Source: an uncultured Candidatus Saccharibacteria bacterium (GTDB lineage Bacteria; Patescibacteriota; Minisyncoccia; UBA6257; 2-01-FULL-56-20). Taken from it: a stretch of DNA of 64,000 nt. The notes under the pieces were generated by a model. The model was given only the letters and a program-made list of their open reading frames with translations. It was not told the DNA's origin and searched no databases. The stretch is taken from the NCBI GenBank assembly GCA_964568535.1, contig CAZMPQ010000001.1, positions 6,183 through 70,182 on the forward strand, read 5' to 3'. Positions within the stretch are counted from its first letter, which is position 1; each line of letters opens with the position of its first letter. Below, in pieces: positions 10,963-51,632 of this stretch. A program made the position numbers and the translations under genes.

Positions 10963-11664
10963 TCAGAGCGTCGTCCGGAGCACGTGATACGCCTCTGCGA
11001 GCGTTCCGCCCATCTCCTTGCCATATATGCGCGCCAGGCGCTCCATATTCTCTACGCTCCGGGGAAACGGGTCTTTCCGCACCTGTGTCGTGTGGCAATG
11101 ATAAAGCTGTACTTTGAAATCCAACAAGTTGCCTTTTCCAAATTTTTCGCTCAGATCCAGATACGCGTTCGGCGTCCGCTGAGGACGGGAGCTCCAGGTA
11201 TACGGCTCAAAATATTCCAGCACGTGGTCCACGAAATGCCGCGCGGAGCGCGGAGTTGGCCGAAGTGCAGCTATGCATGCGTCGAACGTCGCGCGATGGT
11301 CCTGATTATAGCTGGACGACGCCGGCACAGCCATTATGGTGGGACGGAACTCCTCCAAGAGGTCGTCTAGGCGCTCCACGATGTCTTTCTGCGGGATAGC
11401 GTCGAGCTTTACATGGTCTTTCTGCACATACAGCACGCGCACATCCGCGCCCGTGAGCTTCTTTACCGCTTCAACCTCCTTCAAACGATCGGCTCCGCGC
11501 GTCTTCCCGGTAACAAGCTGACGGCTGTCGCCTACCCCCATGTAGAGGATAAGTACTTTTCCGCCCTCCTTCTTTACTTTGCCGATAAGCCCGCCGACGC
11601 CATCTGCTTCATCGTCAGGATGCGGAGCGACCACGAGAAGCCGCGCTGTGCGATCAATATGCAT
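10963..11664 (-). CDS. PIG-L/LmbE-family N-acetylglucosaminyl deacetylase
   Basis: Carries LLVVAPHPDDEADGVGG (the PIG-L zinc motif). I chose the start at M29; the longest ORF extends to 11748. Confidence 0.7.
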   Translation of the reverse strand: MHIDRTARLLVVAPHPDDEADGVGGLIGKVKKEGGKVLILYMGVGDSRQLVTGKTRGADRLKEVEAVKKLTGADVRVLYVQKDHVKLDAIPQKDIVERLDDLLEEFRPTIMAVPASSSYNQDHRATFDACIAALRPTPRSARHFVDHVLEYFEPYTWSSRPQRTPNAYLDLSEKFGKGNLLDFKVQLYHCHTTQVRKDPFPRSVENMERLARIYGKEMGGTLAEAYHVLRTTL

Positions 11665-11701
11665 ATGTTTTTGTATCGGGGGTGCACCCCCTGTATCTAT
11701 T

Positions 11702-12808
11702 CTACGCAAGATGCCCGAGTTTGCGAAGCTGCCGGGCAAGCGCGGCATGACTCAGCTTCTCCGCGTTCTCAGAACTATATACCTGCCCCGTAACAAGCGT
11801 TCCACCGGAGACATGATACTCGGCAAGTTGAGGCATGTGGTCCGCAAGGAATTTGTACGGTAACACGACAAAATGCCTGGGGAATTCCCATATCCGCCCC
11901 ATCTCATCCTGCGACACGAGCACTTCATGGAATTTCTCTCCCGGCCGCGCACCGATGCGCTCACGTTTCGTTCGCGCGTTTCCTAACTCCTTGATCATCA
12001 CTGTAGCAAGCGTTCCGACATCAACCGCGGCCATTTTCGGGATGAATATCTCGCCACCCCTTCCTTCCACGCCCATACGCAGCGCGAACGTCGCGAGGTC
12101 CTGAGGTATCTCCAAAAATCGCGTCATCCGTTCATCAGTTATCGTCACTTTGTTCCGACGCCTGATCTGTTCGCGGAACAGCGGCACAACGCTCCCGTGG
12201 CTTCCCGTGAGATTCCCGGAACGGACGCAGACGAATTTTGTCTCGGGCGAGTGCGCGTTCGCTGCGATGAACATCTTTTCGGCGATGGCTTTCGTATACC
12301 CATAATTATTAGACGGGTCGGCAGCTTTGTCGGATGAAATAAGAACCGCGCGGGGTACTCCGCTTGCCTTCGCTGCCTCGATCACATTCCGAGTCCCAAC
12401 CACGTTCGTCAGTACGAACTCCCAGATGTGCTGCTCGCCAACGGGCACATGTTTCAATGCCGCAAGGTGGAATACCACGTCCATCCCCCGCATGACCTCT
12501 GCTAAGCGTTCTCGGTCGCGTACGTCACCGATATAAAAGTGCAGGCGCGGATCCGCAAAATCACGCGCCATTTCCACTTGCGCGTTCTCGCCGCGGCTCA
12601 TAATGCGTACTTCGGCAGGGTCGTGCCTCAGGAGCTCTGCGGTCACTGCCTGGCCATACGAACCTGTGCCACCGGTGATGAGTATCCGCTTTCTCGCATA
12701 GAACGGCATCGGCTCTGCGGCTTTCGCTTTTGCGGCCCGGCGGCGTGACGGTGCGGCATGCTTCCGTTGGGCGATCACTCGGGGCCGTTTTGTAGCTTGT
12801 TTTTTCAT
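11702..12808 (-). CDS. polysaccharide biosynthesis protein, CapD/PseB/FlaA1-like UDP-GlcNAc 4,6-dehydratase
   Basis: Carries ILITGGTGSYG, LISSDKAADPSNNYGYTKAIAEK and RSGNLTGSHGSVVPLF. The first ~35 residues form a basic extension. Confidence 0.75.
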   Translation of the reverse strand: MKKQATKRPRVIAQRKHAAPSRRRAAKAKAAEPMPFYARKRILITGGTGSYGQAVTAELLRHDPAEVRIMSRGENAQVEMARDFADPRLHFYIGDVRDRERLAEVMRGMDVVFHLAALKHVPVGEQHIWEFVLTNVVGTRNVIEAAKASGVPRAVLISSDKAADPSNNYGYTKAIAEKMFIAANAHSPETKFVCVRSGNLTGSHGSVVPLFREQIRRRNKVTITDERMTRFLEIPQDLATFALRMGVEGRGGEIFIPKMAAVDVGTLATVMIKELGNARTKRERIGARPGEKFHEVLVSQDEMGRIWEFPRHFVVLPYKFLADHMPQLAEYHVSGGTLVTGQVYSSENAEKLSHAALARQLRKLGHLA

Positions 12809-16843: not shown

Positions 16844-18388
16844 TCAATCTTCTGCGCCGGCTCCACCGCACTCGTACGCCGCGAAACCGTATCCCGGCAT
16901 GGTGTTCGTGAGTTGCACGCCGAGGATGCGCGGCACGCCGCGAGTCAGGTGGTCAACAATGAGCGCGCACCCCTCGGCCTCTTGCGGGATCGCAACTTCC
17001 GAACCATTCTCCCCGCGCAGATACGTGCGGTCCAGGACCATCAACCGACGTTCAGGCAACACGACTAATGGAAGAACGTCTCCCGAGTAGTGCATCCGGC
17101 TATATTCTTCTGAAATCACCCACAAGTTCCCCGCGACGAACACTTCATCACTGGGATATTGCGCCAAGATCGGAGCGAACTCCTCGCGCGCCTCGGCGAT
17201 GCCCATCCCCCGCTCCAGATATGCTGGGAACGCGAATACGGTCTTGAGTGAGATGAGCGCGAAGAGGACGAGAAACGCGAGCGCTCCGTATCGCGCCCAG
17301 CGCGGAAGCGCGCCTTGCGTCAGATATCTGACGATGAACGCGAACACGATGAGCGCAAAAAGTGTCGCGTAGTAGGTCTTCGTGCCCATGAAGACCATCT
17401 TCACCAAGAGTCCCGCGAGCGCCGCGGCAAAAAGCAGAAAGAGCGGCAGCGAACGGATCTCGCCGCGGATGCGCACAAAGAGCCGGAACGCCGCGAACGC
17501 GAGGAATACGCCAACGACGGCGTAGGAAAGCGCATACGTGCTCTTCAAGAATGCAGCAGCGTTCCGCAGTTCTATCTTCGCGACCTCAAGGTCCGCGTGG
17601 CGCGATACGCCCTGGAGCGTTTCCGCAATGCTGTACGGCGAGAACTGCATGACGAGGAGATACGTCATGAGCGCGATGCCCGCTACCATCGCAAGCTTCG
17701 TGAGCGCTTCGCGCCACGGATACCGGAACGAGATGTAGAGTCCCACGAGAAGCGGCGAGAACATCGCGCCGAACGGATGGATCGCGGGCATGAGACCAAC
17801 TGCGACACCGCACGCCGCAAGCACCGTCCGCTCGCGCTTCGCGGCGAGTACGATAAGACAAACAATGAGCAGCAAGACGGCTTCCAGGTTCTCCGGGCGC
17901 GCCATATTATTCCATACGGAACGCAAGATGATACAGAGCGATGCCGTGATGAGCAGAACGCCGTATCCCGTGAGCGGCGTGCCGCCGGACGTCGCGACGC
18001 GGAAGAAGAACGTGCCCGCGAGAAGCGCGACTGCTGCGGCGAAAAAACCCATCACCGTCATCGCCTGCTGCGGCAGCGGCATGGCGAACGAGGGCGAGAT
18101 GAGCGTCCCCACGACGAGCTGCAGGAGCGGCGGGAAATAGAGATACCGGTCCGCGCCCGTCGGGTCGCCCCAGGACGTGCGCGTGTCGGTCAGTGGGTTC
18201 ATGAGCCCGTCGCCCATCGCCCAGTTTATCGCCGGAGGGATGAAGAACGACGCGTCGTGATAGCCGTTCAGCGAGTGCCCCGTCGCGCCGAACGCCGCGG
18301 TCATCACCGCAAGCGCGAGCACGATGCCCGCGAGGACGTTCGGCCAGATGTTCCGGGTAGGTTCCATATTAGAAATCATAATAGCCAC
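16844..18388 (-). CDS. polytopic membrane protein, putative GT-C-fold glycosyltransferase/polymerase; paralog of the 34957..36432 gene
   Basis: About 11 predicted TM segments followed by a soluble C-terminal domain. The C-terminus GVQLTNTMPGYGFAAYEC is shared with the paralog (GVQLAHAVPGYGFAVYDC). It is adjacent to a Dpm1-like GT2. Confidence 0.55.
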   Translation of the reverse strand: MAIMISNMEPTRNIWPNVLAGIVLALAVMTAAFGATGHSLNGYHDASFFIPPAINWAMGDGLMNPLTDTRTSWGDPTGADRYLYFPPLLQLVVGTLISPSFAMPLPQQAMTVMGFFAAAVALLAGTFFFRVATSGGTPLTGYGVLLITASLCIILRSVWNNMARPENLEAVLLLIVCLIVLAAKRERTVLAACGVAVGLMPAIHPFGAMFSPLLVGLYISFRYPWREALTKLAMVAGIALMTYLLVMQFSPYSIAETLQGVSRHADLEVAKIELRNAAAFLKSTYALSYAVVGVFLAFAAFRLFVRIRGEIRSLPLFLLFAAALAGLLVKMVFMGTKTYYATLFALIVFAFIVRYLTQGALPRWARYGALAFLVLFALISLKTVFAFPAYLERGMGIAEAREEFAPILAQYPSDEVFVAGNLWVISEEYSRMHYSGDVLPLVVLPERRLMVLDRTYLRGENGSEVAIPQEAEGCALIVDHLTRGVPRILGVQLTNTMPGYGFAAYECGGAGAED

Positions 18389-19106
18389 GCAGATACCGCC
18401 ACATGATCTTCAAGATGTTCAAGCCGTACTGGATGGGCTTCAGGTGGCTCACTTCGTCCGCATAGCGGGTCGGAATGGGCAGTTCCGTAACGCCCAGCCC
18501 TTTCTTTGCGCCAACCAAAAGCATCTCGCCGTCAAAATGGAACGTGTCCGATAGCTTTATGAACGGAATGGTCTGCAGCGCCTTCCGCGAGTAGAGCATG
18601 TATCCCGAGTGGTACTCCGCAAAACGGAGCCCGTAGACCAGATTCTCCATTGTGCTCAGCACGATGTTCGCGATCCACTTATAGAGCGGCATCCCGCCGC
18701 GCAACGCGTCGCGTTTCCGCATCATGCGCGAGCCCTGGACGATATCAGCGCCCTCCTCGGCGAACGGCCGCAGCAGCGTCGGCAACATTTCCGGCGCATA
18801 CTGGCCGTCTGCATGGAGCAAGGCCACGATATCCGCGCCGCGCGCAACAGCTTCAGCGAACGCGCTTTTCTGCGCACGCGCGTAACCCTCGTTCTTCGGC
18901 TTGTCTAACATCGATATCCGGTCGCCCCATCGCGAGCGTATCTCGGCTATCTTCTGCCTTGTCCCGTCGGTGCTTCCGTCATTCACGATGATGACCGAAG
19001 TGCCTGCGTCCCACACCTCCTGTGGGATGCGCTCAAAGACCGAGACGAGCGTCTTCTCGGCGTTATACGCTGGTACGACGATCGTGATACGCTTGCCGTT
19101 CGTCAT
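18369..19106 (-). CDS. GT2 polyprenyl-phosphate sugar transferase (Dpm1/ArnC-like)
   Basis: Carries ITIVVPAYNAEKTL...VIIVNDGSTDGT...LHADGQY. Confidence 0.75.
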   Translation of the reverse strand: MTNGKRITIVVPAYNAEKTLVSVFERIPQEVWDAGTSVIIVNDGSTDGTRQKIAEIRSRWGDRISMLDKPKNEGYARAQKSAFAEAVARGADIVALLHADGQYAPEMLPTLLRPFAEEGADIVQGSRMMRKRDALRGGMPLYKWIANIVLSTMENLVYGLRFAEYHSGYMLYSRKALQTIPFIKLSDTFHFDGEMLLVGAKKGLGVTELPIPTRYADEVSHLKPIQYGLNILKIMWRYLRGYYDF

Positions 19107-19118
19107 GAAAGCGGCGCC

Positions 19119-20132
19119 CTAAAACAGCTTATCTTTCCACGTGCGCGGGGTCTTCGGACTCACGATCTCCAAGTCCAAGTGGTACCGAAAGGGTTTCACG
19201 CCGCGCGTCTGGATATAGACGATCATGTCGCGCAGGCCGTGCTCCAAGGTCGTTGTGGTCTTGTAGCCGAGCAACTTGCGCGCTTTTTCTGCGCTGCAGG
19301 TTGCGAGCTTCACTTCGTTCGGCCGGTCGGGCATATACACGGGCTTCAGCGGGAAATCCAGCAGCTTTGCGACGGTCTCGGCGAGCGTATTGATCGTGAT
19401 GAACTCTTCGTCCGGCCCGACGTTCACCACCTCCCCCACCACGCTCCGATCGAACGCCATTTTTTCCAGGGGGTCCACCACGTCCTGCACGAACGAAAAG
19501 CACCGTTTCTGCTCGCCGTCGCCATAGATCACCGGCTGACGGTTCTGCAACATAAGATTGATCATAATGGACGCGACGTTCCGATACGGATCGTCATACT
19601 TCTGTCGCGGGCCGATGATGTTATGGGGGACGGCGATAACATACTCGATGCCGTGCGTTTCGCAGAGGTTCCGTACCGTGAGTTCCGCAGCGTACTTCGC
19701 GATGCCGTAGGGGTCCTGCGGCTTCGGCGTCATGTCCTCCGTGAACGGAACGCGTTCCTGCGTGCCGTAACGCGCCATACTTGAACACAGCACGAACCGC
19801 TTGATCTTCTGGGCGATACCAGCGGAAAGCACCGATACGGTGATGTCGTACACATTGCGCGTCACGAGGTGCGGCGAAAAGACGCTCAATCCTTCGTATG
19901 CCGTCGCGGCGCAGTGGTAGACCACGTCAACGCCGTCCATGATGCGCGTCATCGCCGCGCGGTCGGCGCAATCCAGTGTATGGAACTCAACACCCGGCGG
20001 TACGTTGTCCAAATAGCCGCCCAAAAGATTGTCTACGCCGATCACCCGGTGCCCGCGCTCCAGGAACCGTTCAGCAAGATAACTGCCTAAAAAACCGGCC
20101 GCGCCGGTAATGAAGATGGTCTGTTTCGCCAT
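19119..20132 (-). CDS. NAD-dependent nucleotide-sugar epimerase/dehydratase (GalE/UXS-like SDR)
   Basis: Carries IFITGAAGFLGSYLAERF and YGIAK. Confidence 0.75.
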   Translation of the reverse strand: MAKQTIFITGAAGFLGSYLAERFLERGHRVIGVDNLLGGYLDNVPPGVEFHTLDCADRAAMTRIMDGVDVVYHCAATAYEGLSVFSPHLVTRNVYDITVSVLSAGIAQKIKRFVLCSSMARYGTQERVPFTEDMTPKPQDPYGIAKYAAELTVRNLCETHGIEYVIAVPHNIIGPRQKYDDPYRNVASIMINLMLQNRQPVIYGDGEQKRCFSFVQDVVDPLEKMAFDRSVVGEVVNVGPDEEFITINTLAETVAKLLDFPLKPVYMPDRPNEVKLATCSAEKARKLLGYKTTTTLEHGLRDMIVYIQTRGVKPFRYHLDLEIVSPKTPRTWKDKLF

Positions 20133-20178: not shown

Positions 20179-20997
20179 CTAGCTTTCCCGTATCGTCCTG
20201 CGAAGATCCTCGTTCACTTCCTCAAGCGTCTCCAGAAGCCGCACATCAACGCCCGCGGCTTTTGCGAACGCCGTGAGGGCACGCACATCCTTCGGTAGAC
20301 ACGCCCCCGCATATCCGCGATATCCCTCGTCAAAGACATCAAAGTGGCTCCCGCCGACGCGCGCATCCTGTGCAACGCCCTCTTTCACGGCTGTGTAATC
20401 GATATCCAGTGTTTTGCAGATGTCGTACATCTGGTTCGCGAAGACGACGCGCGCGGCGAGGAAGTTGTTGTTGAAATACTTCACCATCTCGGCCTCTCGC
20501 GCGCGCAGAACGCGCGCGTAGGGCGCTGGCGGGAGCATTGCAAGGACCGCTTCCGCAGCGCGCTTGCCCGCCTCGTTCGCATATCCGACGAGCTGCCGGT
20601 CGGGACGCAGAAAATCCTCATTCGCCGTTTTCGCGCGGAGAAATTCCGGATTGAACAGGATGGTCTTCCCGGGAAACTGCTTCTGATACCGTTCGGTGGA
20701 TGTCGGGAGCACTGTGGACTTCACGACCGCCACCTTGCCGTCGGCGACGGTGGTGAGCGACTCCACAACAGCCGAATCGTCGTATCCCTGTTTGCCGGAC
20801 GCAGGGTCCGTATGGAACGGCGTCGGCACGGCGATGAATACGGTGTCCGCGCGGTTCACTTCCGCAAGCGAACCGAGCCGTTTTGCCGTGTCGTAGAGAA
20901 ATACCTCGTACTCGTCGCGCTTCCCTTCGAACCAGTTCCGGAGCGCGCCGCCCACGTATCCCACCCCAATGATGCCGATCTTCTTCTTTGCGGGCAT
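20179..20997 (-). CDS. UDP-glucose/GDP-mannose 6-dehydrogenase-family protein lacking the C-terminal UDP-binding domain
   Basis: Carries KIGIIGVGYVGG, IAVPTP, FNPEFLRAKTANEDF and GYAGACLPKD (catalytic Cys). It stops after the central domain, about 273 aa from M51. Confidence 0.55.
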   Translation of the reverse strand: MPAKKKIGIIGVGYVGGALRNWFEGKRDEYEVFLYDTAKRLGSLAEVNRADTVFIAVPTPFHTDPASGKQGYDDSAVVESLTTVADGKVAVVKSTVLPTSTERYQKQFPGKTILFNPEFLRAKTANEDFLRPDRQLVGYANEAGKRAAEAVLAMLPPAPYARVLRAREAEMVKYFNNNFLAARVVFANQMYDICKTLDIDYTAVKEGVAQDARVGGSHFDVFDEGYRGYAGACLPKDVRALTAFAKAAGVDVRLLETLEEVNEDLRRTIRES

Positions 20998-21002
20998 CGT
21001 GC

Positions 21003-22058
21003 TCAATAATATTGGGCGCGCGACTGCACCTGGTAATGCTTCTGGAACGCCTGCGTTGCCTTGATCTTCCCCCACCAATCCGGATGCTTCACATACCACG
21101 ACACGAGGTCCGCCGCGGCGTTCTCCAGCGTGAACTGCGGCGCCCAACCAAGCTCGTTTTTTATTTTTGACGAATCAAGCGCATACCGCAGGTCCGCGCC
21201 CGGGCGATCGGCGACGTGCTGCCGGTGATGGGCGAGGTTTTTCCCCAAGTGATGCGCGAGCAGTTCCAGTACGCCCAAATTGGTCTTCTGCGCTCCGCCG
21301 GCGTTGTAGATGCTGTAATCAGACGCTTCGTGGGCAACAAGGTCTATCGCCGCGCAGAAGTCCTCCACGTGCACCCAACTCCGTGTGTGCTCGCCCGTTC
21401 CATGCACGGGTATCTTCTTCCCTTCTATCATGTTCGTGATAGCAAGCGGGATGAGCTTCTCGGGGTACTGATACGGCCCGAAATTATTTGACCCGCGGAC
21501 GATAAGCGCGGGTATCTGGTGTGTCTTTATCCATGCCTGCACCAAGAGGTCTGCGCCGGCTTTTGAGGACGAGTAGGGATTGGATGGGCGGAACGGCGTT
21601 TCTTCCGTCGCGAACCCTTCAGGAACCGACCCGTATATCTCGTCGGTTGATACCTGGATAAAGCGCGTCGTGCTGAATTTGCGCACTGCTTCAATGAGCG
21701 ACCGCACGCCTTCAATATTCGTCCGGATGAAGTCGTAGCCATTCACAATGGAACGGTCCACATGGCTCTCGGCGGCAAAGTTCACGACGAGATCAAATGC
21801 GTGTTCGGAGAAGATGCGCTCCAGGAGCTTCTCGTCGCAGATGTCCCCGTGGATGAACTGATAGCGGCGCTTCTCCGGGGGGAGCGCCCCGTCTTCCGCA
21901 GCAATGTCCGCTAAATTGTCCTGATTTCCCGCATACGTCAGGAGGTCCAAATTAAAAATACGCATCTGCGGATGCTTGCGGTATGCGTACCGGACGAAGT
22001 TAGATCCGATGAATCCCGAACCGCCGCATATGAGCGCGTTCTTAAAAGTCCGACGCAT
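21003..22058 (-). CDS. rmlB: dTDP-glucose 4,6-dehydratase
   Basis: Carries ALICGGSGFIGSNFVRY, STDEIYG and YSSSKAGADLLVQAW. It is collinear with RmlB. Confidence 0.8.
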   Translation of the reverse strand: MRRTFKNALICGGSGFIGSNFVRYAYRKHPQMRIFNLDLLTYAGNQDNLADIAAEDGALPPEKRRYQFIHGDICDEKLLERIFSEHAFDLVVNFAAESHVDRSIVNGYDFIRTNIEGVRSLIEAVRKFSTTRFIQVSTDEIYGSVPEGFATEETPFRPSNPYSSSKAGADLLVQAWIKTHQIPALIVRGSNNFGPYQYPEKLIPLAITNMIEGKKIPVHGTGEHTRSWVHVEDFCAAIDLVAHEASDYSIYNAGGAQKTNLGVLELLAHHLGKNLAHHRQHVADRPGADLRYALDSSKIKNELGWAPQFTLENAAADLVSWYVKHPDWWGKIKATQAFQKHYQVQSRAQYY

Positions 22059-24404: not shown

Positions 24405-24752
24405 TTAGAATAAAGTCGGGTGAGCAAACATTTGAGAGGCACCATACATAAAAAAAGCTGTCGATACGAATACCCCCAAAGAAAAGAAGAGAAAAGAAAA
24501 GAAGAGAAAAGAAGAGCCCAATCTTCTTAGCTGTTCTCGAAATCGCTTTATGAAGAAGTTCACCAAGAAAAATGGTAAAGAAAAAACACTGATGATTTCC
24601 AAGATTAGTGAATAAATGTTTTCAAATGGAAAGAGCGCCTTTGGCAAGCTTGGGAATACATCTAACGAATAGGGAATCGTAAAAACTAACAATCCGACTA
24701 CTATGCCACCTAAAAGATTTCCGACATAAAACAAATTTAACTTTTTTTTCAT
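24405..24752 (-). CDS. hypothetical small Phe-rich membrane protein in a low-GC (~30%) patch
   Basis: A 115-aa ORF with three or four hydrophobic segments. It begins MKKKLNLFYVGNLLGGIVVGLL, similar to the partner-protein signal anchors. The local GC content is far below the window average. Confidence 0.35.
   Translation of the reverse strand: MKKKLNLFYVGNLLGGIVVGLLVFTIPYSLDVFPSLPKALFPFENIYSLILEIISVFSLPFFLVNFFIKRFREQLRRLGSSFLFFSFLFFSLGVFVSTAFFMYGASQMFAHPTLF
24481..24516. repeat. simple purine-rich repeat, roughly (GAAAAGAAGA)x3.5
   Basis: The sequence reads gaaaagaagagaaaagaaaagaagagaaaagaagag. Confidence 0.6.
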
Positions 24753-24781: not shown

Positions 24782-26137
24782 TCACCATTTGATTATCCCT
24801 TTAATTCTATAAGGGTCGAAGATGGGGTTTAGCTTAGAACTCCAAAGCATTTCAAAATCGCTTATATCTTGGGTACCCAAGTCAGTCTTGGGCGATACAA
24901 GACCGCAAGTGCTAGTGGAATTATCCATAATATTATTTCCTGTACTATGCGCCAGACCGAGTGCGTGCCCAAGCTCATGCGTAATAGTGCATTGTTTCAT
25001 TGAATTCGTATAAGGATCCATATAGTAAGTATTGAAAAGGATATGAGGTTGGTTTGGTGTGGTTGTAGGAACCCATAATCCTGCTTTTCCCATCCATTGA
25101 CCAACGGTCGAGCTGACGACGTCTACATATATATCCCAATCTGAACCAGATGTAGAGGTTGATTTCTTGAGATTCACATAGCTTGCAGTCGCGTCATTCC
25201 AAGTAATGATTGCGTTTAACATTTGCGCATCATATGGCGTAGAACTGCCTATTCTCATGATATATGGCGATGTGCTTGTATTGACGCCCGGCGGCGACCA
25301 CTCGGTATTGTCAGGACGTGACAAGAACGCCGTGTAATAATTGTCCGCATCAATATAGTCAGAAATCTTCGCACCTGTTCCTGAAGCGTTCTGCGTGGCA
25401 TGCCAGGGTCCGGCGTTCTCCGTAGAACTGTTGGCATCATCCAGCGGATACCACCCACCCCAGAAGTTCAATCTCATTGTGGAGGTCGGACTGCCAGTCT
25501 TCCAAGCACTGCTTGTGCTGTTGTTGTATATCGTGCTCGACGCCACCGTCACCGTCCCGCCGGTAATATACAGGCCGTAATCGTTATCGTGTATCGCTGA
25601 TTCCGTTACCGTCGTCGCGCCTCCCGTGCTGTATATCCCGTAGTCCGAAGCATAGGAGATGTCGGTATATCTCGTATTGAGCGTGCCGCCAGTAACGTAC
25701 ACGGTACTGCCTGCTGTGTTTCCGCCGTATCTCACGACGGTTCCTGCGAGAGTCGTGCTCGCGCCGGAGGTAATTTGAATATTTCCCCAATCCCCTGCGG
25801 CTCCCGTTGAAGTTCCATCTCCATTCAGATCCCCTCCCACGCTGTCGTCTTTGAAGGAGGTGAAATATACGAGGGTAGGGCTCAGTGCTCCTCCTTTCAC
25901 ATCAAGCTCTCCGTTCACGATGAGGGAGGTAGATGGTTTGAACTTGATGATGGTGCCGGGTTCAATGGTGATAGTCTTGCCTGCATTGATGGTGACGGTT
26001 GAGGAGACGATATATGGGCCTTCGGCTTTGGACCAGGTGGTGGAGGTTGCGATGGAGCCGGAGAGGGTGCTGGATGGCTTCGCCACGAGTGGTATGCATA
26101 CAAGCATACCACTTTGTTCTATGCGCTCACAGCTCAC
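24782..26137 (-). CDS. secreted parallel beta-helix plus metzincin zinc-metallopeptidase domain protein (a truncated paralog of the 1058-aa protein, lacking the LamG domains)
   Basis: It is about 85-95% identical to the C-terminal ~440 aa of the 27152..30328 gene product. It carries HELGHALGLAHS. An ATGA overlap couples it to the upstream partner gene. Confidence 0.6.
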   Translation of the reverse strand: MSCERIEQSGMLVCIPLVAKPSSTLSGSIATSTTWSKAEGPYIVSSTVTINAGKTITIEPGTIIKFKPSTSLIVNGELDVKGGALSPTLVYFTSFKDDSVGGDLNGDGTSTGAAGDWGNIQITSGASTTLAGTVVRYGGNTAGSTVYVTGGTLNTRYTDISYASDYGIYSTGGATTVTESAIHDNDYGLYITGGTVTVASSTIYNNSTSSAWKTGSPTSTMRLNFWGGWYPLDDANSSTENAGPWHATQNASGTGAKISDYIDADNYYTAFLSRPDNTEWSPPGVNTSTSPYIMRIGSSTPYDAQMLNAIITWNDATASYVNLKKSTSTSGSDWDIYVDVVSSTVGQWMGKAGLWVPTTTPNQPHILFNTYYMDPYTNSMKQCTITHELGHALGLAHSTGNNIMDNSTSTCGLVSPKTDLGTQDISDFEMLWSSKLNPIFDPYRIKGIIKW

Positions 26138-27117
26138 TGACTGGTTGATGACTGAGCAGGTGCTGGAGGCGTTGAGGTAACGTGGATAGGAGGCGGAGGG
26201 GGCGGAGTTGGTGGTTGGGGTGGAGGCGGATAAAATGGGGCGCAGTCGGGGTCTTGGGCGTCGGTGAGGTTGTCGAGGTCGTTGTCTTTGTTGTCACGAC
26301 AATTCACCTGATGGTCCTCTCGATAATATGGCCGGCAGTTGGGGTCGCCCTGATCGACAAGTCTATCTCCGTCATTATCTATGCCGTCGCGACAACTACT
26401 CCCTGAAGTTTCTGTTGTATCTTGTGGTAGTGGCGGTGGCGGCAATGTCTCTGGCACAGGACGGGGAGGTATGAGTTCAGCAAATTTATTGTGGACTGCC
26501 TGTTTCTCAGCTTGGGAGAGCGACTGGAATAAATTAGCGGCAGATTCGCCTGTTGTGCGTCCGTCAAATGGTATCTCATTCGGATACGCATTGAGTAGTT
26601 CGTATGTCCGCGCGTGTCGTAAAACGAGTTCTCTTAATTGCTCCTTACTCAAGTTGGCGTGCTCACTCACTACGGTCTTAGTCGCCGGATGAAAACCTAC
26701 AAAATACCATGGGCCAGCTTCATCGGGGAGATGAGTAGCTCCAAACAGATACGTTGTGCCGGGTGCAAGTTTATCCCCTTTTGTAGAATCCAAGCTCACA
26801 ACAATCCTATCCTCGGCAATACCTTTGATATTGTAAATAACCTCAACGTCATATTGTGTTCTTGATAAACCCAGTGAGTTATCGCTTCTTCCTGCTTCTG
26901 CAAGCACCTTGCCGGCAAATACATTTTGGTAATAACCAACCAACCTGCGGTTGTTATTGAAGTCAGTTGCCCACGTCGCGGCAATGCCGGATTCTCCCAT
27001 GTTCTTTACGCCTGAGTCAGTTGGTGTCTGAAAACCAACCTGCTGTACACCCCTCATCCCGAGATAGATTGCACCGAAAATCAAGATACTTCCAACGATA
27101 AATAGTCGTTTCTTCAT
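26134..27117 (-). CDS. secreted partner protein: signal anchor, a conserved domain of unknown function, two Cys-bracketed Asp-rich (TSP3-like calcium-binding) repeats, and a poly-proline C-terminal tail
   Basis: Starts MKKRLFIVGSILIFGAIYLG. Carries CRDGIDNDGDRLVDQGDPNC and CRDNKDNDLDNLTDAQDPDC, and ends PPPPQPPTPPPPPPIHVTSTPPAPAQSSTSQ. It is a paralog of the 38053..39054 gene. Confidence 0.6.
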   Translation of the reverse strand: MKKRLFIVGSILIFGAIYLGMRGVQQVGFQTPTDSGVKNMGESGIAATWATDFNNNRRLVGYYQNVFAGKVLAEAGRSDNSLGLSRTQYDVEVIYNIKGIAEDRIVVSLDSTKGDKLAPGTTYLFGATHLPDEAGPWYFVGFHPATKTVVSEHANLSKEQLRELVLRHARTYELLNAYPNEIPFDGRTTGESAANLFQSLSQAEKQAVHNKFAELIPPRPVPETLPPPPLPQDTTETSGSSCRDGIDNDGDRLVDQGDPNCRPYYREDHQVNCRDNKDNDLDNLTDAQDPDCAPFYPPPPQPPTPPPPPPIHVTSTPPAPAQSSTSQ

Positions 27118-27151: not shown

Positions 27152-30100
27152 TTATTGCCATTGAATGATGTTTTTCAATCGGTGCGGATCGAAAATAGGG
27201 TGCAGAGCGGGGGTCCAAAGCAATCGAAAATCGCTTATGTCTTGGGCACTTAGATTGGTCTGCGACGATCCTATCTGGCACGTCTGGTCCATTAAGTTGC
27301 CTTCCGGACTATGCGCCAATCCCAAAGCATGCCCGAGCTCGTGGGTGGTTACGCACTGCTTATTCATCTCGACGCCCATTCGCGCGGTATTGAAGTAAAT
27401 GTGAGCGATGCTAGTTGAAGACGGGATATAAAACCATGCCCAACCTCGAGGAACATAAAGCCCGGCCCAATCCAGTGTAGAACTCGTAATATCTGCCGCG
27501 GCCACATCCCACTGCGAGTTCGGGTACGAACTTGCCTTCTCTAAGTTAATATAACCTACGGTTGTATCATTCCAAGTATCAATGCCATCCTCCAATTGCG
27601 TCTGATATTGAGTAGAACTGCCCACCCGCATCACGTATGTTGATGTATTAGTGTAAACAGCTAACGGCGACCAAGTGTTAACATTAGGATGAGACAAATA
27701 CGCGGTGTAGTAATTGTCCGCGTCTATGTAATCGGATATTTTCGCTCCAGTCCCACTAGTATTCTGCGTAGCGTGCCACGGTCCAGCATTTTCCGTCGAG
27801 GTGTTCTTTTCGCTTGAGCCATCATAAGTATCGTCGAGCGGATACCATCCACCCCAGAAGTTCCATTTCATTGTGGAGGTCGGGCTGCCGGTTTTCCAAG
27901 CACTGCTTGTCGCGTTGTTATATATCGTGCTCGATGCCACCGTCACCGTCCCACCGGTAATATACAGACCGTAATCGTTGTCATGTATCGCTGATTCCGT
28001 TACCGTCGTTGCCCCTCCTGTGCTGTATATGCCGTAGTCCGAGGAGTAGGAGATATCGGTATATCGGGCGTTCAGCGTGCCTCCAGTCACGTAGATGGTA
28101 CTACTTGCAGTGCTTCCACCATAGCGGACAACGCTTCCTGCGATGGTAGTACTCGCCCCCGAGTTGATTTGGATATGCCCCCAATCCCCTGCCACCGGCG
28201 CTGTCGCTCCTCCGTCTCCATTCGTATCCCCACCCACACTGTCATCCTTGTATGACGTGAAATATACGAGCGTGGAGCTCAGTGCTCCTCCCTGCACATC
28301 AAGCTCTCCGTTCACGATGAGGGAGGTAGAGGGTTTGAACTTGATGATGGTGCCGGGTTCAATGGTGATAGTCTTGCCTGCATTGATGGTGACGGTTGAG
28401 GAGACGATATATGGGCCTTCGGCTTTGGACCAGGTGGTGCTGGTTGCGATGGTACCGGAGAGGAGGCCTCCGCAGCCGGAGGATTGGGCGCAGACGCGCC
28501 TGCCCTGACTACTGTTCCAGAGCTTCGTCACTTCGCCTGCGGTCAATGCGCGGTTCAGGACCACCACCTCGTCAATCATAGCAGAGATCTTTCCGTAACC
28601 GCCGCCTGAGGGGTAGCCGCCGTGGGCGCCGATGCCGGTGCCGGTGTCTACCGCCGAGGTGCCGTTCCCGGAGCCAGCGGCTGCCTCGGCCTTGAGGTCG
28701 TTCTGCACATAGAGGCGGAGGCTCGTGCCGTCGAAGGTGCAGGCGACGTGGTACCAGGTGGAAGTTGCGAGGCCGTTCCCGCCATTCGTCCAGGAGGCGG
28801 TCTCGTTCGCGGCGCCCCAGCGATTCCGTTGGCAATAAAGTGTCCTCGTGCTCCCGCCGGTATATTCAATGCCGTAGGCAACATCAGTGCCGCTGTCCAC
28901 GACGGAGACGATTTCCTGGTCTCCGGAGGCGATGCTGGCGAACTTGACCCAGGCCGCGAGAGACATGGCGCCCCCGGAGATACCGAGATTCTCCGACGCG
29001 TAAAGATACTTCGTCGTGTTGTCCGTCCCGAAGTCCGCGGCAGTGCCGAGCACGCCGGTTCCCGTTGCGGCGGGGCCGTAGTTCGTCAGGGTGTAGTGAT
29101 TGCCGCTCGCGTCGGCGGCGAAGTGATGGTCAGTATGGTAGAGCGCTCGGATCGCGCCGTCGGTGATCTGGAGATACGGCGATGGGTCCGTTTCCACCGT
29201 GAAATCAAATACATCCGCCGTCCCGAATTGCGTCCAGGAGGATGTGGCGAAAGTCACAGTGTCCTGCGCCCGCGCGCGCCAGTACCAGGACCCGGGCGTG
29301 ATAGAGGAAACGGTCGTTGACGCCTGTGCGCCAGGCGCGACTGGGGAGCTTGTCTGCGTCATTGGGCCGGCGAACGAGGTGCTCGTTGCGAGCTCCACCT
29401 GGACTATGAGCTGGTTCGTGGATGAGGAGTTCGGGATAGCCTTGAGCACGACGCTCGTCTCCGCCGTCGTTGCTCCTTCGGCGAGCGAGGTCGTACCGTT
29501 AGACTTGAACTGGAGGAGATCGCCGATGCTCGGCGGCGTGGACGACGTGCAGCCTACCGTAACGCAAATCGTATCCCCCGAACCGCTGTTCCAGAGCGCA
29601 TTGCGAGTAGAGGTGGAGATGCGGGTGTTCATGAAAAAGAGCTCATCGATATGGAAGTCACCGAGTGCAGCCGCGTTGCATACGGGATTCACGTTCGCCG
29701 AGCGGCCGTTCACGCAGATATCCGTCGTGAAGTTCGTCGTGTCACTGTCGCTCCCCGAGGTCACGATGGTGTTGTTCACATACCACTCTACCGAGCTTCC
29801 CGTACGGGTCAGGAGATGCCACTGCCAAGCGCCGACTGGCGGGCTGGAGGTGGTGTATTGCATCTCGCAGGGCGGCGTACCGTCCACGAACTCCAGGACG
29901 CCTGCGGCACAGGCCTGCGCACGGCTTATCTGTTCGATGCTGTCAGCTCCCGCACTACGGCGGCTGATCACGGCATCATCGTCCAGGGTCGCTTGTGCAT
30001 TAATCCAGAAACCGATGCTGAAATCACTGGAGAGGTCCATAGCGCTGGACGAGGCTCGGAACCAGCCGGTTCCCTGAGTGTCGCCGGCGTTGCCGAACCA

Positions 30101-30328
30101 ACCGGTCACGTAGGCGGTGCCGCTTGCGGTGAGGTTCCTACCGTTTCCTGAGGAATCGCTTGCATCCTCAAAGTGGTAGAGGGCGGTGACGGAGCTTGAG
30201 GGGATGTATACAGTGGCGGAGGCGGGGTGGGGGAAGAAAAACGCCGCCAAGATGGCGACGGTAGGGACGGCGAGGACAGCGGCGGACGTTATTCCACCGA
30301 ACGGAACGACCCTGGCGTTCCTGAACAT
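27152..30328 (-). CDS. very large secreted surface protein: signal peptide, two LamG_3 (concanavalin A-like) domains, an Ig/FN3-like region, a parallel beta-helix and a C-terminal metzincin (M10-like) catalytic domain
   Basis: Starts MFRNARVVP followed by a hydrophobic helix. The LamG_3 domain ends are ALYHFEDASDSSGNG...IDELFFMNTRISTSTRNALWNSG and ALYHTDHHFAADASGNH...IDEVVVLNRALTAGEVTKLWNSS. The beta-helix repeats include TGGATTVTESAIHDNDYGLYITGG. The zinc motif is THELGHALGLAHS, and the conserved C-terminus is FDPHRLKNIIQWQ. Confidence 0.75.
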   Translation of the reverse strand: MFRNARVVPFGGITSAAVLAVPTVAILAAFFFPHPASATVYIPSSSVTALYHFEDASDSSGNGRNLTASGTAYVTGWFGNAGDTQGTGWFRASSSAMDLSSDFSIGFWINAQATLDDDAVISRRSAGADSIEQISRAQACAAGVLEFVDGTPPCEMQYTTSSPPVGAWQWHLLTRTGSSVEWYVNNTIVTSGSDSDTTNFTTDICVNGRSANVNPVCNAAALGDFHIDELFFMNTRISTSTRNALWNSGSGDTICVTVGCTSSTPPSIGDLLQFKSNGTTSLAEGATTAETSVVLKAIPNSSSTNQLIVQVELATSTSFAGPMTQTSSPVAPGAQASTTVSSITPGSWYWRARAQDTVTFATSSWTQFGTADVFDFTVETDPSPYLQITDGAIRALYHTDHHFAADASGNHYTLTNYGPAATGTGVLGTAADFGTDNTTKYLYASENLGISGGAMSLAAWVKFASIASGDQEIVSVVDSGTDVAYGIEYTGGSTRTLYCQRNRWGAANETASWTNGGNGLATSTWYHVACTFDGTSLRLYVQNDLKAEAAAGSGNGTSAVDTGTGIGAHGGYPSGGGYGKISAMIDEVVVLNRALTAGEVTKLWNSSQGRRVCAQSSGCGGLLSGTIATSTTWSKAEGPYIVSSTVTINAGKTITIEPGTIIKFKPSTSLIVNGELDVQGGALSSTLVYFTSYKDDSVGGDTNGDGGATAPVAGDWGHIQINSGASTTIAGSVVRYGGSTASSTIYVTGGTLNARYTDISYSSDYGIYSTGGATTVTESAIHDNDYGLYITGGTVTVASSTIYNNATSSAWKTGSPTSTMKWNFWGGWYPLDDTYDGSSEKNTSTENAGPWHATQNTSGTGAKISDYIDADNYYTAYLSHPNVNTWSPLAVYTNTSTYVMRVGSSTQYQTQLEDGIDTWNDTTVGYINLEKASSYPNSQWDVAAADITSSTLDWAGLYVPRGWAWFYIPSSTSIAHIYFNTARMGVEMNKQCVTTHELGHALGLAHSPEGNLMDQTCQIGSSQTNLSAQDISDFRLLWTPALHPIFDPHRLKNIIQWQ

Positions 30329-31667: not shown

Positions 31668-32729
31668 TTAGCCCGCAATATCGCGGACGAGCGCTCGTAT
31701 ATCCCTCATCGTAGAACGGTCGCGCAGAAACCGCAAGATATTTTCTCGGTACCGGGCCATATCCGCCTCCGTGCGCGACGCAAGAAAGCGGTGCACGTCC
31801 GCGTCGCTGCTGAACGTTCGCCGGTCGATAAAGCAATCTTCTGGCACGATCGTCGCGATGTCCGGCGCGCCCAGATAGACCGGGACGCATCCTGCCGCAA
31901 GACAGTCAAAGATCTTTTCGCTCACATATCCCGGGTACGCGGAGTTCTCATAGCAGATGGCAAATCTATATGTACTCATGAGCGGCATTTTATATTCCAC
32001 TCCTCCCCGCCACGCGCGCGCAACGTACGTGCCGTAGTGCATATAGAATGGGTGGCGGGGAGCGTGCTCCCAGCCGTGACCGTAGAGGTCAAACCCCGAA
32101 ACCCCGCTCCAATAACGGATAGCGCGAAGCCGCTCGCCATAGAGCTCATGCCGCAACGAGTGCGGACGCACGTTCCCGTTCACCAGCACCACAAACTTAT
32201 CTTTTCTATCTCCGAAATAGGGGCTCACGATATCGCGGTTGCGATAGAAGAACGGGTTGTAATATATGATGTCGTCTCCCCATCCTCGTCCCATCACCAT
32301 CATTGCGTGATACGTACCCGACCGGCGTATCGCACCCAGACGGTCGTATACATACGGCATCACGAGCGGCGACTCGCCCTGCACAAGCACGCGCCGTTTG
32401 AAAAACTTGAAGTTGTCAGCGAGGAACTTCTGCCGGGCACGCAAGAACCCCCCGCCGGAGCGGGCGTGTTTTACGGCATAGAACACGCGCCAGATGAGCG
32501 TCTCGCCTGGATGGTTCTGCACGAGCAGCACATCGTCCGGCCCTGCCATTTCGCGCGACCAGGCGTCCGTGGTATGCACTTCTATTCCAAGCTTTCGCGC
32601 TTCATCGGGAAATCCCTCGCCGAAGAACGGGATGTCCCACATGCCGCCCTCATAAATGCGTTTTGGGTTGCCGAACACCTGACCGCGAAGGCCTTGTTCG
32701 CTCGTCGGCAGTACGAATATGCGCTTCAT
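31668..32729 (-). CDS. GT10-like (alpha-1,3-fucosyltransferase family) glycosyltransferase
   Basis: Carries FAICYENSAYPGYVSEKIFDCLAAGCVPVYLGAP, which matches the GT10 FxxxFENSxxxxYxTEK and C-terminal motifs. Confidence 0.5.
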   Translation of the reverse strand: MKRIFVLPTSEQGLRGQVFGNPKRIYEGGMWDIPFFGEGFPDEARKLGIEVHTTDAWSREMAGPDDVLLVQNHPGETLIWRVFYAVKHARSGGGFLRARQKFLADNFKFFKRRVLVQGESPLVMPYVYDRLGAIRRSGTYHAMMVMGRGWGDDIIYYNPFFYRNRDIVSPYFGDRKDKFVVLVNGNVRPHSLRHELYGERLRAIRYWSGVSGFDLYGHGWEHAPRHPFYMHYGTYVARAWRGGVEYKMPLMSTYRFAICYENSAYPGYVSEKIFDCLAAGCVPVYLGAPDIATIVPEDCFIDRRTFSSDADVHRFLASRTEADMARYRENILRFLRDRSTMRDIRALVRDIAG

Positions 32730-34177: not shown

Positions 34178-34909
34178 TCACTTCGCGGCGTTCTTCGCGC
34201 GTTTACCCGTGCGGATGCGCTCCTTCCATATCATCACCGACATCATGAACCCAACCTTCGCCGAACGCGGGATATTGCCCGTTCCTTTTGACACGCCGAC
34301 CCGCGGCAAGTAGCGCACCGGCACCTCAACCGAGCGCAAACCATGCTGGATAACGCGAATCATGACCTCGGGAGAAAAGTGCAATCCTTTCACGGTAAGG
34401 TCGTTCTTGATGGCCTCGTATGTATGGCGTTTCAGCAATTTGAACGTGCAGCCAACCTCCGTAAAGGACGGCCCGTCAAAAAGAAAGCTCAGCATCTTCG
34501 CCACCGCCCAGTTGCCCATGCGGACCGGGCGTGGCATGAATGCGCCGGGGCTGATCAATGTGCGCGAGGTTCGCGTGGAGAATACGGCATCAAAATCGTC
34601 GCTGTATGCAAGCAACTTGTGGATGTCGGATGGCGCATAGGTGCCGTCGGAATCCGCGGTCACGATGATGTCTCCTGTCGCCTCGCGCATCCCCCGCTGT
34701 AGCGCAGAACCGTATCCGCGCTCGGGCTCCAACACATACCGCGCTCGCGTGCGTTTGATCTCTGCAGCGGTCGCGTCGGACGACGCGTTATCCACCGCAA
34801 CGACCTCATCCACTTCCGGCTGGGCGAAAAATCCTTCTATGGTATCGCGAATGCACCCTTCCTCATTGTAGGCCGGGAGCACCACGCTCACTTTCTGGTT
34901 CCGATACAT
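34178..34909 (-). CDS. GT2 polyprenyl-phosphate sugar transferase (Dpm1-like)
   Basis: Carries VSVVLPAYNEEGCI...VVAVDNASSDAT...VTADSDGTY. Confidence 0.75.
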   Translation of the reverse strand: MYRNQKVSVVLPAYNEEGCIRDTIEGFFAQPEVDEVVAVDNASSDATAAEIKRTRARYVLEPERGYGSALQRGMREATGDIIVTADSDGTYAPSDIHKLLAYSDDFDAVFSTRTSRTLISPGAFMPRPVRMGNWAVAKMLSFLFDGPSFTEVGCTFKLLKRHTYEAIKNDLTVKGLHFSPEVMIRVIQHGLRSVEVPVRYLPRVGVSKGTGNIPRSAKVGFMMSVMIWKERIRTGKRAKNAAK

Positions 34910-39054: not shown

Positions 39055-39079
39055 TGCATTGTTTAATGTGTTAGGGACC

Positions 39080-42139: not shown

Positions 42140-42165
42140 GATGATTGAACGATACCACGGAGGAA

Positions 42166-42177
42166 CCCCCCCCCCCC
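42166..42177. repeat. homopolymeric tract, C12 on the plus strand (G12 on the coding strand), 26 nt upstream of the conserved start of the 1039-aa gene
   Basis: Read directly. On the coding strand the context is GTGCGGGGGGGGGGGGTTCCTCCGTGGTATCGTTCAATCATCATG. With 12 G the tract is in frame with an upstream ATG at 42199. Confidence 0.8.
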
Positions 42178-42199
42178 GCACAAGCGGGGATGTGCACAA

Positions 42200-51583: not shown

Positions 51584-51632
51584 TCAGGGCAATTGCAACA
51601 CCCTCATATATACCGACATACCGAAGGTACCT

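Follow-up and report, generated by a model that had tools for sequence, protein, structure and literature searches.

A 64-kb stretch of DNA from an uncultured Candidatus Saccharibacteria bacterium (64,000 nucleotides, hereafter the window) contains two gene pairs, each composed of a soluble glycosyltransferase (GT) of family GT2 and a large polytopic membrane protein (MP) with a predicted GT-C fold. We propose that each pair is, in all likelihood, a lipid-phosphate-sugar relay. The fuller statement, that the window carries two cognate modules of the Gtr/Arn/Scc type for glycosylation at the outer face of the membrane, with the glycan of the surrounding sugar gene island as the acceptor, is our working reading, with the chances evenly balanced. 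The direct evidence covers the fold of the membrane proteins, their conserved outward-facing residues, the type of the GT2 enzymes and the subtype-specific pairing of the two kinds of genes. The four genes are as follows.

18369..19106, minus strand: GT2-1, 245 aa, soluble GT-A glycosyltransferase (no transmembrane helix), predicted polyprenyl-phosphate monosaccharide synthase of module 1
16844..18388, minus strand: MP1, 514 aa from a GTG start, GT-C-fold membrane protein with 11 predicted transmembrane helices and an extracytoplasmic C-terminal domain
34957..36432, minus strand: MP2, 491 aa, predicted GT-C-fold membrane protein, paralogue of MP1
34178..34909, minus strand: GT2-2, 243 aa, soluble GT-A glycosyltransferase, predicted polyprenyl-phosphate monosaccharide synthase of module 2

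An earlier reading of the bare sequence (the original prediction) had placed two paralogous pairs at these positions, and all four open reading frames (ORFs) were indeed found there, on the minus strand. An alternative ATG start of MP1 at 18379, three codons later, yields a product of 511 aa, as in the public record P0001. The GT2 gene was also thought to lie directly upstream of the membrane-protein gene. That is the arrangement of pair 1, where the end of the upstream GT2-1 gene shares 11-20 nucleotides with the beginning of MP1, and not of pair 2, where the order is reversed, with MP2 upstream, followed by a 47-nucleotide gap and then GT2-2. MP1 and MP2 align end to end with 29% identity (E 4e-49), and GT2-1 and GT2-2 are 25% identical (E 4e-14). 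The pairs are paralogous as proposed, and are old, distant paralogues and not recent duplicates.

Fold and family of the membrane proteins

Hydropathy analysis gave about 10 hydrophobic segments in each membrane protein, in line with the at least 10 transmembrane helices originally noted, and the AlphaFold2 model of MP1 (pLDDT 79.2, pTM 0.83) has 11. In this model, the first outer loop (residues 37-104) contains two short helices, at 47-57 and 87-96, and the chain ends in an alpha/beta domain. When this model was compared with solved structures by Foldseek, the top 14 matches were all GT-C proteins with probabilities of 0.98-1.00. The figures for the structural matches were 14.4 for ALG9, 14.2 for ArnT, 13.7 for ALG3, 13.5 for glycosylphosphatidylinositol (GPI) mannosyltransferase I, 13.4 for AftB, 13.3 for Pmt4, 12.2 for AglB, 11.1 for PimE and 10.6 for PglB; further GT-C matches were AftA, STT3B, Pmt1/2, AftD, ALG6, DPY19 and EmbA. 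Below the top 14, the probability was mostly about 0.1, the exception being a GT-C-like subunit of the GPI transamidase at 0.85. A transporter role was considered for the membrane proteins and rejected, as transporter folds reached a Foldseek probability of about 0.1 and a TM-score of about 0.1. The polytopic core of the model is superposable on solved GT-C enzymes, with a conserved acidic residue soon after the first transmembrane helix (TM1), and no confident match to a non-glycosyltransferase family was obtained. According to the model, MP1 and MP2 are GT-C-fold enzymes of an unnamed family, as the original prediction had anticipated with respect to the fold.

The N-terminus of MP1 is placed inside the cell and the C-terminus outside, and the loop charges obey the positive-inside rule. 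Conservation is concentrated on the outer side, with 72 of the 77 positions that are conserved at 60% or more belonging to the C-terminal outer domain, to loops outside the membrane or to the outward ends of helices. The principal sites are listed below.

18254..18256, minus strand: Asp45 codon of MP1; this residue of the first outer loop follows TM1 by 9 positions and is the candidate catalytic base
17897..17899, minus strand: Arg164 codon of MP1; this residue belongs to an R-P-E motif of the outer loop that links TM3 to TM4 and is a candidate ligand of the donor phosphate
36331..36333 and 35980..35982, minus strand: codons of Asp34 and Arg151 of MP2, the counterparts of MP1 Asp45 and Arg164 in the alignment
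16847..17221, minus strand: C-terminal extracytoplasmic alpha/beta domain of MP1, residues 390-514, bearing the PGYxFAxY motif

A conserved acidic residue in a catalytic loop had been named as the feature that a GT-C enzyme should possess, and Asp45, which is 97% conserved among 93 family members and lies in the first outer loop, provides it. Solved GT-C enzymes have their catalytic Asp at the corresponding place, according to PMC11127046. The loop reads H-D45-A in MP1 and N-D34-G in MP2, with a single Asp and not Asp-Glu; Asp75 is 78% conserved. Arg164 is the sole invariant column in both the 108- and the 93-sequence alignments, and we infer that it is a phosphate-binding residue. Other conserved residues of MP1 are Glu166 (88%), His204 (61%) and His264 (80%). 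The C-terminal motif noticed earlier is present in both proteins, as ILGVQLTNTMPGYGFAAYECGGAG in MP1 and LFGVQLAHAVPGYGFAVYDCRAPG in MP2, and its core, G..L....PGY.FA.Y, is kept across the 93 family members (Tyr500 95%, Tyr505 97%).

A search of Pfam with MP1 gave a sub-threshold match to GT87 (PF09594), at 19.5 bits where the gathering score is 25. For MP2 there was no GT87 match, and both proteins fall outside that family. Among the 93 relatives, four had weak GT87 matches (E < 0.01, best E 1.4e-6) and 89 scored nothing. NCBIfam returned noise for MP1 and MP2, with no family passing, and neither MP1 by phmmer nor a 108-sequence profile gave a meaningful match among all PDB chains. The Pfam models PMT, PMT_2, YfhO and STT3 had no match in the 93 relatives scanned (E <= 0.01); for MP1 and MP2 themselves there was no match to PMT or PMT_2, and none to YfhO at E <= 1. 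The two proteins fall outside GT39 (PMT) and GT83 (ArnT), to which their likeness is structural only, and, lacking the Pfam domain, outside the YfhO family (PgtC2, PgfM1, lipoteichoic acid glycosylation). Features of an oligosaccharyltransferase (OST) were likewise absent, as there was no STT3/PglB/AglB Pfam match and no WWD tripeptide in either translation; with a C-terminal domain of only about 125 aa, the proteins do not belong to GT66 (STT3/PglB/AglB). A profile search over 1.84 billion cluster representatives (clustered at 50% identity) identified 377 relatives at E <= 1e-3 and 119 at E <= 1e-30, nearly all of 480-530 aa and matching end to end. A word-indexed homologue search yielded only 3-5 relatives for each query, and its repetition with the profile contributed nothing of use. 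Judged by sequence, the MP1/MP2 family is discrete and of modest size, with no passing Pfam, NCBIfam or PDB match.

The GT2 enzymes

GT2-1 and GT2-2 both contain a full Pfam PF00535 domain (E 4e-27 for GT2-1). Their best NCBIfam matches are AglJ, a haloarchaeal dolichyl-phosphate (Dol-P)-hexose transferase, PpgS (polyprenyl-phospho-GalNAc synthase), PgfS and ArnC, and the models of the Dol-P-hexose transferase and PpgS are aligned over almost their entire length. For GT2-2, the match to AglJ had an E-value of 1.6e-22 and that to the Dol-P-hexose transferase one of 2.5e-20, both below the cut-off. Among PDB chains, GT2-1 best matched the Pyrococcus DPMS (5mlz, 3e-12) and then ArnC. The best match of GT2-2 was ArnC (9hwj, E 2.4e-10, aligned over residues 5-203), in an alignment that takes in the DSD metal motif and TEVGCTFKLLKRH opposite GDYGCMLRAYRRH of ArnC. 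Asp47, Asp100 and Arg127 are invariant in 9 GT2 orthologues. The earlier assignment of these enzymes to the Dpm1/ArnC type of polyprenyl-phosphate sugar synthases agrees with these best matches to ArnC, DPMS, AglJ, the Dol-P-hexose transferase and PpgS, and we predict that both GT2-1 and GT2-2 are Dpm1/ArnC-like. As far as sequence comparison reaches, they resemble polyprenyl-phosphate synthases and are not assignable to a named enzyme or sugar.

Pairing of the genes in related genomes

Gene neighbourhoods were scanned with hidden Markov models built from the window proteins in 14 independent loci (designated by L and a number) that contain a family member. A search for related loci with a narrow alignment produced only 2 from genomes and 2 short ones from metagenomes. 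In this small sample, a Dpm1-like GT2 was located no more than two genes away from the family member in 9 of the 14 loci. MP1-type proteins always accompany GT2-1-type enzymes (L001 and L008), and in L001, L005 and L008 the gene that immediately precedes the MP1-type one is a GT2-1 orthologue. MP2-type proteins accompany GT2-2-type enzymes in L002, L004, L007 and L014. MP2-type orthologues occur in these last four loci and in L005, and are always accompanied by the GT2-2-type gene. Both pairs are present in L005, from a Candidatus Parcubacteria metagenome-assembled genome (MAG), as in the window. The association of a GT2 with the membrane protein, which was originally read from one stretch of DNA, is thus kept in other genomes and is subtype-specific.

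Some of the related loci contain a third component. L008 has the gene order GtrA (PF04138, 5e-20), GT2 and MP, which is the textbook three-component order, and in L004 and L007 (the latter from a Saccharibacteria MAG) a 126-aa protein with four transmembrane helices, EamA/SMR-like by weak Pfam scores, is encoded between the GT2 and the MP. GtrA and these small EamA-like proteins are candidate flippases. In L009 (6079..10110), the family member is flanked by UbiA, a short-chain dehydrogenase/reductase (SDR) and a HAD phosphatase and not by a GT2, with radical-SAM and methyltransferase genes nearby. A route of the UbiA, SDR and HAD type leads to decaprenyl-phosphate-arabinose in mycobacteria and to undecaprenyl-phosphate (Und-P)-ribofuranose for GT136 (PMC11127046), and L009 looks like a polyprenyl-phosphate-pentofuranose type of donor route attached to the MP1/MP2 family. 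Since the family is found with two different routes to polyprenyl-monophosphate sugars, it is very likely a lipid-phosphate-sugar-dependent transferase. The family has so far been found in Parcubacteria and Saccharibacteria MAGs, as well as in contigs of uncertain origin.

Proposed mechanism

In the mechanism that we infer for the lipid donor, the flipping step, the catalysis and the acceptor, GT2-1 or GT2-2 would load polyprenyl phosphate with a single sugar, taken from a nucleotide sugar, on the inner side of the membrane, the lipid-phosphate-sugar would be flipped by a flippase encoded outside the window, and the partner GT-C enzyme would pass the sugar to an acceptor held near its C-terminal outer domain. 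Asp45 would be the likely base, and Arg164, Glu166, His204 and His264 would line the donor site. Most likely, each module is responsible for a sugar or linkage of its own. The modules would add side chains, after export, to the surface glycan of the island in which they lie, as SccN/SccM with SccP/SccQ, GacI/GacL and GtrB/Gtr* do in their systems.

The sugar island occupies the minus strand from about 970 to 48284 (about 47 kb), and RNase Y at 48305 marks its end. It encodes about 12 cytoplasmic glycosyltransferases (several GT2, GT4, GT9 and GT10) and many sugar-nucleotide enzymes, and its content includes a GDP-mannose dehydratase with two GDP-fucose-synthase-like SDRs, a dTDP-glucose dehydratase, a PglF/CapD-like dehydratase, a DegT aminotransferase, a PIG-L deacetylase (10963..11748), C- and O-methyltransferases, a sugar kinase and a membrane protein with a Wzy_C domain.

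46899..48284, minus strand: Wzy_C protein with 11 transmembrane helices (PF04932, E 2e-18), weakly matching a putative O-glycosylation ligase model

The Wzy_C protein could be a polymerase, a ligase or a protein O-oligosaccharyltransferase of the PglL/WsfB type; in the last case, it would provide the island with an alternative route to glycoproteins.

If the pairs are relays, we lean towards a glycan as the acceptor, either free or itself linked to protein through the Wzy_C protein; direct O-glycosylation of proteins is possible and has a clearly smaller share of our confidence, and the remainder falls to a lipid or other acceptor. A glycan is slightly favoured because the modules are embedded in an island of glycosyltransferases, sugar-nucleotide enzymes and a Wzy_C protein. 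It is also favoured because the two modules of L005 bracket a compact, contiguous sugar cluster without a surface-protein gene, because the set of LamG genes that precedes the sulfatase gene in the window (described below) is missing from L002/L003, and because Streptococcus mutans offers an example of two GT-A/GT-C pairs that decorate one polysaccharide (PMC11754754).

Several observations weigh against this reading of the modules. The relay is predicted from sequence and a structural model, and the AlphaFold2 model of MP1 was built on a 7-sequence alignment. The C-terminal domain of MP1 is not recognisable as a carbohydrate-binding module. The best NCBIfam scores of the GT2 enzymes, 66-80 bits, are all far below the equivalog cut-offs of 325-529, and GT2-1 has HAD where DxD is expected. 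Hydropathy revealed no hydrophobic segment in either GT2, so that the C-terminal transmembrane helices of GtrB and ArnC, and the corresponding anchor of the archaeal DPMS, are found in neither. Members without transmembrane helices do exist, such as human DPM1 and the 226-position PpgS model, and for this reason the function is not excluded by their absence. No flippase (GtrA, SMR/EamA, MATE or Wzx) was detected in the 64-kb window by tblastn with the GtrA and EamA-like proteins of the relatives and by listing of the ORFs with multiple transmembrane segments, which are only MP1, MP2, the Wzy_C protein, an ORF of 115 aa with three such segments and no family match (24405..24752) and a holin-like ORF (51372..51989). 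An initiating phosphoglycosyltransferase and a polysaccharide exporter, including an ABC exporter, were not found in the window either. Finally, a second genome again has LamG genes beside a module, an arrangement that a protein acceptor would explain just as well.

Surface proteins and the possibility of a protein acceptor

The modules are interleaved with genes for surface proteins.

39080..42199, minus strand: LamG/zincin surface protein (Pfam), directly upstream of the set of sulfatase, MP2 and GT2-2 genes
38053..39054, minus strand: membrane-anchored companion with a C-terminal tail rich in Pro, Ser and Thr (PST), residues 298-333
24782..26137, 26134..27117 and 27152..30328, minus strand: second set of surface-protein genes, inside the sugar cluster, paralogous to the set at 38053..42199

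The original prediction had described the adjacent surface proteins as beta-helical, which holds for a single 451-aa protein by Pfam; the large ones consist of LamG and a C-terminal zincin peptidase. These LamG/zincin paralogues share 45-70% identity (70% and 45% among paralogues). The companions at 26134..27117 and 38053..39054 are about 46% identical, and each has an N-terminal transmembrane anchor and a C-terminal PST-rich tail. Each large LamG/zincin protein is followed by its companion, with DxDxDG-like repeats flanked by Cys. The local GC content of the surface-protein genes is 0.48-0.50 (0.49 for 38053..42199) compared with 0.55-0.61 elsewhere.

The surface proteins had also been called rich in Ser/Thr and in N-x-S/T sequons. 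Ser and Thr do amount to 24-26%, but the sequons occur at the frequency expected from composition, with 6 observed and 6.3 expected, 15 and 12.4, and 22 and 16.7. N-glycosylation was excluded as a role of MP1 and MP2, given the lack of OST features and the sequon counts at expectation. The proposal of a protein target thus loses its N-x-S/T argument, and is fitted instead by the LamG protein beside the L014 pair and by the PST-tailed companions.

In L014 (3404..7902), an MP2-type/GT2-2-type pair again has genes for a LamG protein and a small anchored protein just upstream, though the genes are ordered differently. This LamG protein is 54% identical to that of 27152..30328 over 390 aa, and its companion has no PST-rich segment by the criterion used for the window companions. 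The surface-protein genes are missing from the matching clusters in three of the four related genomes where these were readable (L002/L003 and L005).

The same donor logic could therefore serve a protein acceptor, with MP1 and/or MP2 O-glycosylating the PST-rich tails of the companions or Ser/Thr-rich stretches of the LamG/zincin proteins, a possibility that we consider tentatively. Ppm1/Pmt act in this manner in actinobacteria, and GtrB/PgtC2 and PgfS/PgfM1 in streptococci. It is suggested by the interleaving of the surface-protein genes with the modules, one set being directly upstream of the sulfatase, MP2 and GT2-2 genes, and by the recurrence of a LamG homologue with a small anchored protein upstream of the differently ordered L014 pair. 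Both window companions have the architecture of streptococcal acceptors, with an N-terminal anchor and a PST-rich tail, and the S. mutans pgf cluster co-encodes a GT-A enzyme, two GT-C enzymes and adhesin substrates (PMC12041528). Against a protein acceptor stand the absence of surface-protein genes from the L002/L003 and L005 clusters and their location in lower-GC stretches of the window, the missing PST-rich segment of the L014 companion, the sequons at expectation together with the absence of the OST that N-glycosylation needs, and the lack of a Pfam match to PMT, PMT_2 or YfhO. The protein-acting GT-C enzymes are also structurally no closer to MP1 than those acting on glycans or lipids. 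Because LamG has a lectin-like fold, the co-location could be that of proteins which are binders of the glycan and not its carriers, and it is possible that the LamG/zincin proteins and their companions are either acceptors or glycan-binding proteins. The narrower idea that the MP1/MP2 family is a dedicated protein O-glycosyltransferase, which puts single sugars from polyprenyl phosphate on the PST-rich tails of the companions, seems rather doubtful to us. If it were correct, the family would be a counterpart of PMT and YfhO/Pgf in the Candidate Phyla Radiation (CPR), derived from an unrelated GT-C family and synthases without transmembrane helices.

Other alternatives to a glycan acceptor

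A membrane lipid or lipoglycan as the acceptor, comparable to phosphatidylinositol mannosides for PimE (GT87) or lipid A for ArnT, is improbable. The weak GT87 similarity (19.5 bits for MP1; 4 of 93 members, best E 1.4e-6) is the only family signal at the sequence level, ArnT and PimE are among the structural matches, and a PIG-L-family deacetylase is adjacent to the pair in L008 and present in the island at 10963..11748. However, the GT87 match does not reach the gathering score and is lacking in 89 of the 93 members, the modules have no genes for lipid-anchor biosynthesis close by, and the context is mostly one of nucleotide-sugar and repeat-unit type enzymes.

It is more improbable still that there is no relay, the GT2 enzymes being Leloir enzymes that extend a lipid-diphosphate-linked oligosaccharide and the membrane proteins being non-catalytic or having another role (a PIG-U-like scaffold, a polymerase or a transporter): the lack of transmembrane helices in the GT2 enzymes, their scores far below every curated cut-off and the many other glycosyltransferases of the island, among which some adjacency is expected by chance, would fit such a view, but the co-occurrence of MP and GT2 subtypes survives rearrangement of the loci, relatives have GtrA or EamA-like genes within the pair, a UbiA/SDR/HAD route to lipid-phosphate-pentose stands in for the GT2 in L009, the conserved residues concentrate on the outer face and include an Asp right after TM1, and no transporter fold scored above noise.

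Comparison with known systems

The serotype c carbohydrate (SCC) system of S. mutans, with its two GT-A/GT-C pairs SccN/SccM and SccP/SccQ that add two different side chains to one polysaccharide (PMC11754754), is comparable to the two cognate modules with a glycan acceptor proposed here. It resembles the window in having two cognate synthase/GT-C pairs in one glycan cluster and no identified flippase (PMC11754754); GacI/GacL of S. pyogenes are related to it. An enzyme of the alkaline-phosphatase superfamily is also located alongside, SccH/GacH in the streptococci and a sulfatase-like protein here. In contrast to the S. mutans system, the GT-C sequences have no detectable relation, the window synthases lack transmembrane helices and the sulfatase-like protein of the window has no membrane domain.

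The relay logic is shared with the enterobacterial and phage Gtr system, composed of GtrA, the Und-P-glucose synthase GtrB and a GT-C enzyme (Gtr*), and L008 has exactly the order of GtrA, GT2 and MP. The window, however, contains no GtrA, and GtrB has two C-terminal transmembrane helices where the window GT2 enzymes have none; GtrB (PDB 5ekp) matched the latter only weakly (2e-5 to 4e-4). With ArnC/ArnT, an Und-P-Ara4FN synthase and a GT83 enzyme, the likeness is in logic only, as no ArnA/B/D-specific matches, ArnE/F or Pfam PMT_2/GT83 domains were found. A Gram-positive-like CPR cell also has no lipid A.

A combination of a GT-A lipid-phosphate-sugar synthase and a GT-C enzyme is equally found in the protein O-glycosylation systems Ppm1/Pmt (GT39), GtrB/PgtC2 and PgfS/PgfM1/PgfM2 (YfhO) (PMC12041528). 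The acceptors of the streptococcal GtrB/PgtC2 and Pgf systems are the Ser/Thr-rich disordered tails of membrane-anchored proteins (PMC12041528), and such tails occur in the window. Unlike these systems, MP1 and MP2 have no PMT or YfhO Pfam match, and loop 1 carries a single Asp and not the DE motif of PMT.

In the GT136 enzyme ORF12 of Citrobacter youngae, which has 11 transmembrane helices, the catalytic Asp comes just after TM1, a small helical domain follows TM1 on the outer side, and the outer domain at the C-terminus contains beta structure; D31, E34, H106 and R349 are essential residues (PMC11127046). The layout of MP1, compared with the GT136 system (PPPRS, MATE and ORF12; Kelly et al. 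2024) by its published description only, is alike (PMC11127046). The systems differ in that the window uses GT2 synthases and not UbiA, and the C-terminal domain of MP1 is an alpha/beta domain of about 125 aa and not an Ig-like carbohydrate-binding module. PimE of GT87 (PF09594) has no C-terminal outer domain, and 89 of the 93 family members score nothing against this model.

The relay by a lipid-phosphate-sugar synthase and a GT-C enzyme is already well established, so that the mechanism comes as no surprise. It is normal for systems of the Gtr, Arn, Gac, Scc, Pgf and GT136-like kinds to have unrelated GT-C sequences. The useful outcome is the delimitation of a GT-C family with about 377 cluster representatives and no curated model in the libraries searched, which gains candidate catalytic residues (D45, R164, E166, H204 and H264) and a distinctive domain at the C-terminus (PGYxFAxY). 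Its characterisation would probably lead to a new CAZy family. For donor specificity, a clean test bed is offered by the two cognate pairs, and the LamG surface-protein neighbourhood is a lead on how bacteria of the episymbiont type dress their surface proteins or glycans. The cell envelopes of Parcubacteria and Saccharibacteria are almost uncharacterised, and a literature search on GT-C enzymes in the CPR found nothing.

Neighbouring genes

Further genes beside the modules were annotated.

19119..20132, minus strand: SDR epimerase/dehydratase (Pfam), directly upstream of GT2-1
20179..21147, minus strand: UDP-glucose-dehydrogenase (UGDH)-like protein (Pfam), upstream of the SDR
36429..37826, minus strand: sulfatase/alkaline-phosphatase superfamily protein, 465 aa, no transmembrane helix (Pfam PF00884, E 1e-41)
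32726..34123, minus strand: 465-aa protein downstream of GT2-2, with Methyltransf_23 (E 1.3e-4) as its only Pfam match and no NCBIfam match

The SDR and UGDH-like genes are found in the same order upstream of GT2-1 in L001 and L005, and their products are candidates for making the nucleotide sugar of module 1. These genes did not reveal the identity of the donor sugar, since NCBIfam provided generic matches only. The UGDH-like protein, which covers positions 73-300 of a 413-position model, apparently has no UDP-binding domain at its C-terminus; the orthologues are annotated with a length of 270 aa.

The stop codon of the sulfatase gene overlaps the start of MP2 (ATGA), and the two genes are translationally coupled. 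NCBIfam gave weak arylsulfatase, LtaS and EptA matches for this protein, which is also encoded in L014 and, at the corresponding place, in L002/L003. Its role may be that of a phospho- or sulfo-transferase for the same glycoconjugate, loosely recalling GacH/SccH, which are membrane proteins. No transmembrane segment, signal peptide or C-x-P-x-R formylglycine motif was visible in it. Homologues of the 465-aa protein at 32726..34123 were found in six loci (L002, L003, L004, L005, L014 and L017), near MP2-type/GT2-2-type pairs and GT10 genes.

Away from the modules, the minus-strand gene at 58609..62112 encodes an IleRS-like class I tRNA synthetase of 1167 aa (tRNA-synt_1, Anticodon_1 and DUF5915), in which a His_Phos_1 domain at residues 509-668 (E 6.8e-33) lies between the synthetase segments in one continuous ORF, an unusual insertion or fusion.

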